In this document: positions 48,879 to 49,961 of the stretch, piece after piece
How positions within the stretch are numbered: the stretch's first letter is position 1
Layout of the letters: each line of letters starts with the position of its first letter
Notes under the pieces: generated by a model
The model's database searches: none
The model's input: the letters and a program-made list of their open reading frames with translations, nothing else
Told to the model about the DNA's origin: nothing
Made by a program: the position numbers and the translations under genes
Source of the DNA: a virus
Lineage: Duplodnaviria; Caudoviricetes
Virus record (IMG/VR): IMGVR_UViG_3300035701_000031
Span: 1 to 61,433 of that record
DNA: 61,433 nucleotides
Direction: 5' to 3' (one strand)

Positions 48879-49961
48879 TCAACCTCCCGTTACGTTTACT
48901 TTTTTTTGTAAAGAGGTAACCATAATTTCATCAAATTTTTTCTTTTTTCTATTTAAATAAAGGGTGTTTGCTCCTTTGTAAAGCCAATTTGCAATTTTTA
49001 TAGTTTGGGGTATCCCCTCATAATTTAATTCCCAGCAATTTTTATTTTTTTGTTTTGTTAAACTTCCTTTTTTTACGCCTTTAATTTTTGATAATTTTTC
49101 TTGAACTTTTTTAAGTAATTTTTTTGAACCAGTAAGTTTGAATGTGGCTCTGTTTTTTCCATTTCTTTTTTTGAAATATATGCAACCATCGCCATCAAAT
49201 AAACCTCGAATAAAATGATTATCGGCTTCTTCTGAAATGTTTGGATAGGCTGAACGAATTGTTTTTTTGGTAATATCAAACGGGCATATCTTTTGCAAAT
49301 CAGAATACATTTGTTTACTGTTTATTGTGGTCGAATATTCTATATTGGCATCTGGGCGTTTATATTTTGTTATATAATGCGTTGAACCAAGGATATTTTT
49401 AATTTTTTCAATTGGTTCTAATTCATTTTGGTCAAAACGAACACGATAACATTTCTTAATTGCACATCCATCTGCCATCCAAAACCCAAGAACATAGGCA
49501 CTTTTTGATGTAATTTTTGAAAAGAATTTTTCATTCACTTTATGATATTTTTGATGCGCATATTTTACATTGATGTTTTTTTCTTTAAGCCAATTTAAGA
49601 TAGTCTGTGGATTTAAATTATATTTTTGCCCCAATTCGCAACTATTTGAGCCTTTTTTATATTCATTTACAATTTTATTTTTCAATTTTAACGGAATAAT
49701 TGAATGGGTTTTTAAAAATGCTGAAGGTTTTTTTGATGTTTTTTGCCTTTTTAAAATGTTTTGAATTAAACAATGCGAGGCATTATATTTTCTACCTAAT
49801 TCCCAAGTGCTCAAACCTTTTTTTAAATATTGGCTAACTATTTGTTTTTCTTTCGAATCAGTAAATCGTCTTTTTCCTTTATATGTTCGACCTATTTTTC
49901 TCCCACTGCGCATCCCTCTCGCACTTAAGCTATGCCTCGCTGGTTCATTCTGCCAACTCAT
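48879..49961 (-). CDS. free-standing LAGLIDADG homing endonuclease with N-terminal ARH-like motif and HTH repeats
   Basis: AYVLGFWMADG and FIRGLFDGDG motifs; N-terminus SWQNEPARHSLSARGMRSG. Confidence 0.88.
   Translation of the reverse strand: MSWQNEPARHSLSARGMRSGRKIGRTYKGKRRFTDSKEKQIVSQYLKKGLSTWELGRKYNASHCLIQNILKRQKTSKKPSAFLKTHSIIPLKLKNKIVNEYKKGSNSCELGQKYNLNPQTILNWLKEKNINVKYAHQKYHKVNEKFFSKITSKSAYVLGFWMADGCAIKKCYRVRFDQNELEPIEKIKNILGSTHYITKYKRPDANIEYSTTINSKQMYSDLQKICPFDITKKTIRSAYPNISEEADNHFIRGLFDGDGCIYFKKRNGKNRATFKLTGSKKLLKKVQEKLSKIKGVKKGSLTKQKNKNCWELNYEGIPQTIKIANWLYKGANTLYLNRKKKKFDEIMVTSLQKKVNVTGG

Follow-up and report, generated by a model that had tools for sequence, protein, structure and literature searches.

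What does a free-standing homing endonuclease gene do hard against a gene that is split by mini-introns? The question is raised by a locus of a virus genome assigned to the Caudoviricetes (Duplodnaviria), IMG/VR record IMGVR_UViG_3300035701_000031. The window analyzed here is the entire record, a single contig of 61,433 base pairs (bp) classed as virus. On its minus strand a LAGLIDADG endonuclease gene (48879–49961) ends with the TGA at 48881–48879, followed by 8 nucleotides (nt; aaagacag) and, at 48870, the ATG of a small coat-like membrane-protein gene with three inserts. This gap, already described in the first-pass annotation of the locus, was read directly from the sequence. The same annotation had proposed that the enzyme cuts intron-less alleles of its neighbor and that an intron protects the gene carrying it. 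With a probability of roughly 60% we favor another answer: the endonuclease gene is a selfish free-standing cassette, and the introns of the neighbor may hitchhike with it. This answer leans on what is known of the enzyme family.

The open reading frame (ORF) extends over 48879–49964 on the minus strand and opens with TTG, the ATG at 49961 being the likelier start, which gives a protein of 360 amino acids (aa). Pfam LAGLIDADG_3 (PF14528) matches in two stretches (E = 1.1e-12; score 48.5 bits, cut-off 22.5), and PHROG 4645, 'endonuclease', matches across residues 54–347 (1.5e-40). The LAGLIDADG core occupies residues ~150–355 (48897–49514, minus strand) with motif 1, VLGFWMADG, carrying Asp164 (49470–49472) and motif 2, IRGLFDGDG, carrying Asp258 (49188–49190); both aspartates are invariant across an alignment of 37 homologs. 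In the AlphaFold (AF2) model, with a mean predicted local distance difference test (pLDDT) of 85 and values >90 for residues 150–355, the helices 152–164 and 244–258 are each followed by beta strands (pLDDT >90), and the core follows the tandem alpha-beta-beta-alpha-beta-beta-alpha order of the LAGLIDADG fold. A Foldseek search returned 145 PDB matches at E ≤ 0.001 with LAGLIDADG enzymes at the top. The best match is the archaeal intron-encoded enzyme I-Tsp061I (2dch; E = 1.3e-9, TMt 0.67), followed by I-AniI, E-DreI, the bI3 maturase and I-DmoI (TMt 0.62–0.66). By sequence, no PDB entry matched below E 0.49. The protein is an intact monomeric double-motif LAGLIDADG homing endonuclease and, taken by itself, an ordinary member of a well-known family; it is probably an active endonuclease.

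N-terminal to the core, two helix-turn-helix (HTH) modules (residues ~30–75 and ~88–130; 49572–49874, minus strand) were modelled as three-helix bundles with pLDDT values of ~87–92 and presumably form an extra DNA-binding region. The corresponding Pfam matches stayed below threshold, HTH_Tnp_1 with 22.2 vs 24.1 bits and HTH_28 with 20.8 vs 25 bits. By tblastn, 127 phage records matched at 25–29% identity over residues 24–347, 90 of them from Staphylococcus phages; 89 of the 127 cover at least 80% of the query and some are annotated as 'intron-encoded endonuclease'. The HTH plus LAGLIDADG endonucleases of Twort-like Staphylococcus phages (PHROG 4645; Romulus, Remus) are homologous over this same range. 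In contrast to them, which lie within group I introns where their position is annotated, the enzyme described here is free-standing, belongs to a presumably archaeal virus and starts with a virus-specific N-terminal motif.

That the gene stands outside any intron or intein, as the first-pass annotation had it, agrees with its own ATG, its own TGA, a promoter-like repeat on its 5' side and the absence of an intein domain. The intein-splicing family PF14890 occurs in none of the 120 homologs listed. No bulge-helix-bulge (BHB) motif that is conserved across the window and its two syntenic relatives encloses the ORF; the only one that could do so is weak and absent from one of the relatives, L002. 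BLASTP against the intein and NUMOD3 endonucleases of the window gave nothing below E 1.

The relatives in question are L001, with 91% DNA identity to the window, and L002, with ~66%; the endonuclease is present in all three genomes. Its dN/dS amounts to 0.24 vs L001 and 0.39 vs L002, a substitution pattern by which the gene is under purifying selection. The divergence is distributed very unevenly along the gene. The window and L001 enzymes are 89% identical, the proportion of synonymous differences (pS) being 0–0.04 in codons 1–120 and 0.2–0.7 in the remainder. In the comparison with L002 the bulk of the gene is saturated (pS ~0.6), and the last 30 codons show a pS of 0.09. The alleles P0003 and P0004 have 43–50% identity over the full length, yet share the first ~22 and the last ~22 aa. 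Environmental contigs from sediment runs (X1 to X4), compared at 80% likeness and a low depth (3–8), add to this picture. In an X3 contig 459 nt of the core are replaced by 453 unlike letters between matching ends. Breakpoints were observed at 49955 (X3, X4), right behind the second codon of the ORF with a matching flank, and at 48929–48937 (X1, X3, X4), 18 codons before the stop. The contigs that break there could represent alleles with an empty site, where some other resident gene lies, or endonuclease alleles that have diverged strongly. No environmental contig joined across the endonuclease gene was found, which bears neither way. We read the pattern as a variable core cassette of ~48936–49954 with conserved resident sequence on either side. 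The promoter and the first codons of the ORF would come from the resident sequence at one end, and its stop would be supplied by the resident sequence it runs into at the other.

Homologous endonucleases occur at two other intergenic loci of related viruses, L003 and L004, without a coat-like gene beside them. At L004:730–1776 a full NUMOD3+LAGLIDADG gene is found where the window has a 113-aa remnant, a NUMOD3-only ORF at 42444–42785. At L003:1392–2090 another full NUMOD3+LAGLIDADG gene faces a different, opposite-strand NUMOD3 gene of the window (60144–61109, plus strand). These comparisons indicate that endonuclease genes come and go at fixed hot spots.

Directly downstream of the endonuclease, the coat-like membrane-protein gene (48518–48870, minus strand) comprises 73 codons plus stop. 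Its 222 nt are distributed over exons at 48870–48859, 48821–48781, 48729–48663 and 48619–48518, separated by three inserts of 37, 51 and 43 nt, and the reading frame switches 0>1>2. An uninterrupted paralogous domain, the C-terminal 71 aa (30687–30899, minus strand) of a 380-aa ORF at 30684–31826, served as a ruler for the exon junctions, and the junctions agree. The same joins were returned by a splice-motif scanner set to find two 3-nt bulges separated by a 4-bp helix, with cuts after the second bulge base. Frame switches, paralog-matched junctions and the agreement of the scanner together bear out the earlier claim that the neighbor carries BHB-type mini-introns; the three inserts fit introns of the BHB or a relaxed type.

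Among the predicted introns, all on the minus strand, I2 (51 nt, in frame; 48730–48780) has the strict hBHBh' form with an outer helix of 5 bp, a central helix of 4 bp, two 3-nt bulges and an inner helix of 7 bp, without G-U pairs, and its motif is reproduced by the unconstrained minimum free energy (MFE) fold (z = -3.97). I4b (43 nt; 48620–48662) is a BHB with a 2-bp outer helix; its scanner match joins QMFGI|GLML and its hairpin has a z of -4.2. I1 (37 nt; 48822–48858) is a relaxed BHB, similar to a bulge-helix-loop, with the helix GACC:GGUU, the 5' bulge UAA, an inner helix of 11–12 bp and almost no outer helix (MFE z -4.17). The alifold consensus of I1 from the three genomes comprises 24 pairs. 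A compensatory change is seen in 1 of them and a change on one side in 5, and 1 pair does not form in one of the sequences.

The motif as such is permissive. A scan of the whole window gave 99 matches on the minus and 78 on the plus strand, compared to 47–64 in shuffled sequences, and 24 loose BHB candidates lie within the split gene itself. A scan for frame-joining matches (70 on the minus vs 48 on the plus strand) was likewise non-discriminating. The case for introns therefore rests on the agreement with four independent rulers, namely the paralog, the two relatives, selection and environmental DNA.

In the relatives the split gene is located at L001:1560–1920 and L002:4629–4940. L001 contains the inserts I1 (37 nt), I3 (43 nt), I4a (40 nt) and I5 (22 nt), and L002 contains I1 (49 nt) and I4a (40 nt). 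I1 is common to the three genomes; I2 is absent from L001 and L002 and, like I4b, found in the window only. Six distinct insertion sites thus result (I1, I2, I3, I4a, I4b and I5, at ~nt 12, 53, 89, 116, 120 and 138 of the 222-nt coding sequence), with inserts of 22–51 nt that all fit one cut rule. With regard to strictness, I2 is the strict BHB, I4b and I4a have outer helices of 2–3 bp, and I1 as well as I3 and I5 of L001 have little or none and resemble a bulge-helix-loop. As to selection, exon 4 differs from that of L002 by 11 synonymous and 1 non-synonymous changes. Since short direct repeats flank the inserts, translational bypassing was considered as well. We consider it possible but less likely than splicing, given the strict BHB of I2, the 22-nt length of I5 of L001, which is very short for a hop, and the single cut rule that all inserts fit.

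One of the introns appears to have changed its site. I2 of the window is homologous to I4a, with an alignment score of 19.5 against L002:4794–4833 that none of 300 shuffles reached, and 1 of 300 in the comparison with L001:1756–1795. I2 lies 63 nt from the I4a site; both follow the exon letters ATGTTC, and the central helix GUUC:GAAC is kept. Homologous introns at different sites of the same gene mean that the intron has moved, and the pattern looks like intron transposition. I1 of L002 (4641–4689) is 12 nt longer than that of the window, the extra piece forming, within the loop, a small BHB-like hairpin whose outer helix has 9 bp and whose central helix is GUUC:GAAC, possibly an intron nested in an intron. 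A further observation concerns the QMFG|IG junction, where the unrelated introns I4a (L001, L002) and I4b (window, 48662/48663) are inserted 3–4 nt apart around a 4-nt AT core. This spacing equals the width of the staggered cut made by LAGLIDADG enzymes; a coincidence is possible.

Further relatives of the locus were not found in viral contigs by protein, alignment and DNA-pattern searches, nor in genome contigs with the 168-aa neighbor as query, nor in phage records by DNA. The coat-like domain gave no further relatives in a search of the protein collection limited to 39–125 aa, and among the first 48 loci (L001–L048) the coat-like family is confined to L001 and L002. BLAST of the eight intron sequences revealed no other copy in the window; introns of other sequence elsewhere in it were neither found nor excluded.

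For a selfish cassette in this setting we propose the following course. The cassette would be expressed from one copy of the virus promoter-like repeat and probably cotranscribed with the small membrane-protein gene. During co-infection the enzyme would cut a site of ~20 bp in cassette-less genomes, as is expected from its family, and recombinational repair would copy the cassette together with flanking DNA into the cut genome. The tRNA-splicing endonuclease and the ligase of the host would remove the three BHB-type mini-introns of the neighbor. At a distance of no more than a few hundred bases from the cassette, these introns would be co-converted, and thus hitchhike, whenever the cassette homes. 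Precedents come from free-standing phage endonucleases that, according to PMC2988022 and PMC6083498, cut away from their own gene and co-convert the flanks. Closest in this respect is T4 mobE with the nrdB intron that contains the defunct I-TevIII, where a free-standing endonuclease carries an intron along by co-conversion. In contrast to the present enzyme, whose mobility we can only suggest, mobE is an HNH enzyme acting on a group I intron in a bacterial phage, and its mobility is reported to have been demonstrated genetically (PMC2790892, PMC2988022). A specific protection by introns is not needed in our reading. That the cassette abuts the one gene of the window in which introns were found is put down mostly to linkage; with ~8 endonuclease-type genes among ~100 genes by our own estimate, adjacency to an endonuclease is not rare by chance.

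Three points weigh against the selfish cassette. No cassette-less version of the locus was recovered, all three syntenic genomes carrying the cassette. Purifying selection across alleles of 43–50% identity would also fit a domesticated function. Finally, the independent introns I4a and I4b, which are inserted within the width of a staggered cut, are left unexplained.

This last point and intron-less alleles in environmental DNA are among the observations that speak for the proposal of the first-pass annotation. Contigs from the sediment runs are 51 nt shorter at I2 (X2, X4) and 43 nt shorter at I4b (X4), with short sides of 23–29 letters and a low depth (3–8) at these joints, and one X4 contig end runs uninterrupted through the I4 junction. 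A further X4 contig (record 26) lacks I1 and continues into the endonuclease ORF, of which it covers the final ~85 nt, its shorter side measuring 85 letters. The substrate that such a proposal needs is therefore real. In detail, the enzyme would recognize an exon-exon junction of the intron-less neighbor, the intron would protect the own copy, and both would spread, that is, collaborative homing with an intron as shield. Intron-less alleles at I1, I2 and I4b, existing as DNA in the sediment runs, would be potential targets, and a LAGLIDADG cut at the AT core would fall between the non-homologous I4a and I4b. Enzyme and introns co-occur in all three syntenic genomes, and the solved structures most similar to the model are those of archaeal BHB-intron enzymes. 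We also count in favor of a link between enzyme and introns that the window is devoid of other copies of these introns.

The layout has a precedent in F-CphI and psbA of cyanophage S-PM2, where a free-standing endonuclease adjoins an intron-containing viral gene and intron-less alleles occur in relatives; here the distance is 8 nt, the gene has three introns, and intron-less alleles of it exist in relatives, too. F-CphI was shown to cleave intron-less DNA and the intron to protect against it (Zeng, Bonocora and Shub 2009, cited after PMC6083498); for the present pair both would be predictions. Unlike the present enzyme, F-CphI is of the Endo VII type, a different nuclease family, and its intron is a self-splicing group I intron instead of the three to four predicted host-spliced BHB mini-introns per gene. 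The terms 'collaborative homing' and 'trans homing' were likewise defined for group I introns (PMC2988022, PMC6083498).

Several observations argue against such a shield. The six insertion sites, distributed along 222 nt, cannot all lie in one LAGLIDADG target of ~22 bp; at most two or three would fit. The co-occurrence of enzyme and introns, seen in a tiny sample of three genomes, comes with differing sets of introns, even between the window and L001, whose enzymes are 89% identical. In the X4 contig of record 26 an allele without I1 adjoins the end of the endonuclease ORF, the upstream remainder being unseen. The family members at the other loci moreover lack a coat-like neighbor. On balance we regard collaborative homing with an intron shield as plausible, yet rather unlikely. 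A related proposal is a two-part mobile system in which the enzyme would cut the intron-less gene near QMFG|IG and the introns would protect it, spread and transpose via repair; we give it about the same low probability.

The nearest structural relatives suggest still another origin. I-Tsp061I and I-DmoI share with the present enzyme the fold, the two-motif single chain, the archaeal setting and the association with BHB-type introns. In contrast to the present gene, which ends outside an intron, 21 nt 5' of a 37-nt viral mRNA intron, theirs lie within the rRNA introns that they mobilize; the present protein also has ~130 extra N-terminal residues (motif and two HTH modules), and the identity is 17–19%. 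The endonuclease gene could be the descendant of an intron-borne gene that was once situated within a large BHB intron at MADL|NIDP and was rearranged out, leaving a 37-nt remnant. I1 indeed begins only 21 nt after the endonuclease stop, and ORF-less derivatives of endonuclease-bearing rRNA introns are described for Aeropyrum (PMC2738675). A different BHB, with its 5' cut at the ATG of the endonuclease (49962/49961) and sharing the 3' splice site with I1, is moreover possible in the window and L001. The corresponding large intron, 49961–48822, was rejected as probably a chance match: 4 of its 8 inner pairs are G-U, it is present in two of the three genomes, being absent from L002, and it gives a usable frame in the window only and not in L001. 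No duplication of exon 1 or of an intron was detectable in the 5' region of the endonuclease by local alignment, the scores being reached by 488, 436 and 316 of 500 shuffles, which argues against a descent from an intron. We judge this origin to be improbable.

Returning to the cassette and its expression, candidate signals lie on both sides of the gene. A TATA-like, promoter-like repeat, TTTATATAAGAAAGGA, is located at 49992–50007 (minus strand), ~30 nt 5' of the endonuclease start. This 16-mer occurs in four exact copies and one near copy (2 mismatches), all on the minus strand, compared to an expectation of 0.28; none of 100 shuffles reached five, and an ORF starts 15–50 nt 3' of each copy. 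By this recurrence and position a promoter role is suggested, and the earlier statement that places the endonuclease between this element and the split gene is correct as to position. Four of the copies belong to a longer element of ~60 nt containing CCGTCTTACTCTATTTTTAAAGAACCAAAATGTTTTTATATAAGAAAGGAC, which precedes ORFs on the minus strand (15308–15363, 30629–30684, 31806–31861 and 42224–42279) and probably constitutes a viral promoter family; the copy at the endonuclease has only the last ~25 nt of it. Just 5' of the TTG and ATG of the endonuclease, GGGGATGA (49966–49973, minus strand) can be read directly as a motif similar to a Shine-Dalgarno (SD) sequence and may act as such.

For the split gene the first-pass annotation had placed the SD in the last codons of the endonuclease. 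GGAGGT is indeed present there (48882–48887, minus strand; 11 nt before the ATG), with the same letters in L002 and GGAGAG in L001, and its use as SD is plausible from this spacing. The additional claim that ACCUC at the end of the ORF can pair with GAGGU of this SD, in a hairpin that would mask it, was not supported beyond chance. The hairpin has an MFE of -7.3 kcal/mol and a z of +0.28, with 123 of 200 shuffles folding at least as well, and in L001 the SD part reads GAGAG without a compensating change. Downstream of the split gene a hairpin, GCCCG-UUUU-GACGGGC, followed by a T-run (48470–48499, minus strand) was read directly and is conserved in L001; with low confidence it is possibly the end of the transcription unit. 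A scan with bacterial promoter and terminator consensus sequences gave no excess and did not list this hairpin, and an Rfam search gave nothing close to the gathering scores. Directly upstream of the endonuclease, the second coat-like paralog noted earlier was recovered (65 aa; 50023–50220, minus strand). It aligns with the split gene and the C-terminus of ORF 30684–31826 and has orthologs at the equivalent position in L001 (98% identity) and L002 (57%).

The N-terminus of the endonuclease does carry a variant of an 'ARH' motif, MSWQNEPARHSLSARG, as had been noted, with EPARHSLSARG at residues 6–16 (49914–49946, minus strand). ARH-type motifs occur in 13 ORFs of the window including the endonuclease, 11 of them N-terminal, one internal (ORF 26853–27368) and one C-terminal (ORF 12731–13135). 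In its common form of ~20 residues, M-x-KGW-x-x-ESARHSLARKGI-x-TG-x-K (GW..ESARHSLARKGI.TG), the motif heads 10 otherwise unrelated ORFs, examples of their minus-strand starts being 30504, 29122, 28785, 25961, 24598, 24167, 15054, 14620, 12201 and 42190. No Pfam family matched it. Residues 1–29 of the endonuclease, including the motif, are disordered in the model (pLDDT <50). The motif might serve as a tag for targeting or packaging, or as a tail that binds nucleic acids.

A motif common to 12 other viral ORFs would also suit a protein that has been domesticated, either as DNA-binding regulator or as maturase-like RNA chaperone for the relaxed introns, and that no longer homes. The operon-like unit with the spliced gene points in the same direction, as do the intact gene with purifying selection in every allele seen and the maturases bI3 and I-AniI among the structural matches. 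BHB splicing is catalyzed by host proteins and does not require a maturase, which argues against the chaperone. Both catalytic aspartates are kept and invariant, and the mosaic, fast-evolving core with homologs elsewhere has the look of a mobile element. A domesticated role is accordingly regarded as very improbable. Lowest of all we rank an inactive relic, a decaying endonuclease gene without present function. Homing endonuclease genes often decay once they are fixed, and the window itself contains at least one remnant, the NUMOD3-only ORF at 42444–42785. Against a relic stand the full-length frame in three genomes, the dN/dS of 0.24, the kept catalytic residues and the confident fold.

The selfish cassette is situated in a genome with many endonuclease-type genes. 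In a Pfam scan of the window, 7 of the 38 larger ORFs were found to contain homing-endonuclease, intein or TnpB domains. These are NUMOD3 ORFs at 10413–11372 and 60144–61109 (plus strand), an ORF with NUMOD3 and HNH at 3203–3964, one with NUMOD3 and DUF559 at 34057–34803, a TnpB ORF at 35870–37063 and two intein genes at 20056–22644 and 32542–34053 (minus strand). One of the two latter encodes a helicase, whose intein has a LAGLIDADG domain of its own, and the other a 503-aa protein. The GC content of the window varies between 31 and 41% with a negative GC skew along the full length, the long ORFs lie nearly all on the minus strand, and no tRNA genes were found in it.

Splicing of BHB introns would require an archaeal host enzyme, and shared genes point to a candidate. 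Four genes of sugar metabolism (SIS, HpcH aldolase, methyltransferase and DeoC-type aldolase) form a 2.9-kb block at 16689–19599 of the window that has 88.5% DNA identity to L049:7869–10789. L049 is a 72-kb contig titled 'uncultured archaeon' from a 1.4-Mb metagenome-assembled genome (MAG), and the remainder of this contig is unrelated to the window. The block is likely a recent gene transfer between host and virus and as such a host pointer. The MAG also encodes a tRNA-splicing endonuclease (PF01974, 5.8e-27; ORF at G001:C11:9474–9734). Shared block and splicing enzyme together point to an archaeal host, as judged by sequence comparison. The MAG is devoid of the coat-like family and of the 168-aa neighbor, and the endonuclease query gave only distant LAGLIDADG/HTH matches in it.

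Mini-introns of this kind are known from archaeal cells. The cbf5 intron of Crenarchaeota is, according to PMC2738675, likewise a short (16–44 nt), host-spliced BHB intron without nuclease that is gained and lost among relatives. Archaeal rRNA introns carry LAGLIDADG genes that mobilize them, for which the cbf5 mRNA intron is too short, as stated in the same source. In contrast to cbf5, a cellular gene with one intron, the viral gene would contain up to four predicted introns in 222 nt, at six sites in three genomes, with an endonuclease adjacent. In our literature searches we found no report of BHB introns spliced from archaeal virus mRNAs, except for 12-bp 'putative introns' in an archaeal virus whose splicing is unproven (PMC2738675). 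Within the same limits, no report was found of a free-standing LAGLIDADG gene beside a spliced BHB intron of an archaeal virus mRNA.

The importance of the finding lies in the setting and not in the enzyme, whose nearest solved relatives mobilize archaeal rRNA introns. If it is spliced as predicted, the split gene represents BHB splicing of a viral mRNA. The locus combines a 222-nt gene with six insertion sites, one intron family at two of them, natural intron-less alleles and an endonuclease gene 8 nt upstream. How short, ORF-less archaeal BHB introns originate, move and are lost is a long-standing question, for tRNA introns and cbf5 alike. The two-part system of enzyme and introns, if true, would be the first case of collaborative or trans-homing on host-spliced BHB introns, and a viral one, and it would explain how archaeal introns without an ORF are gained and move.

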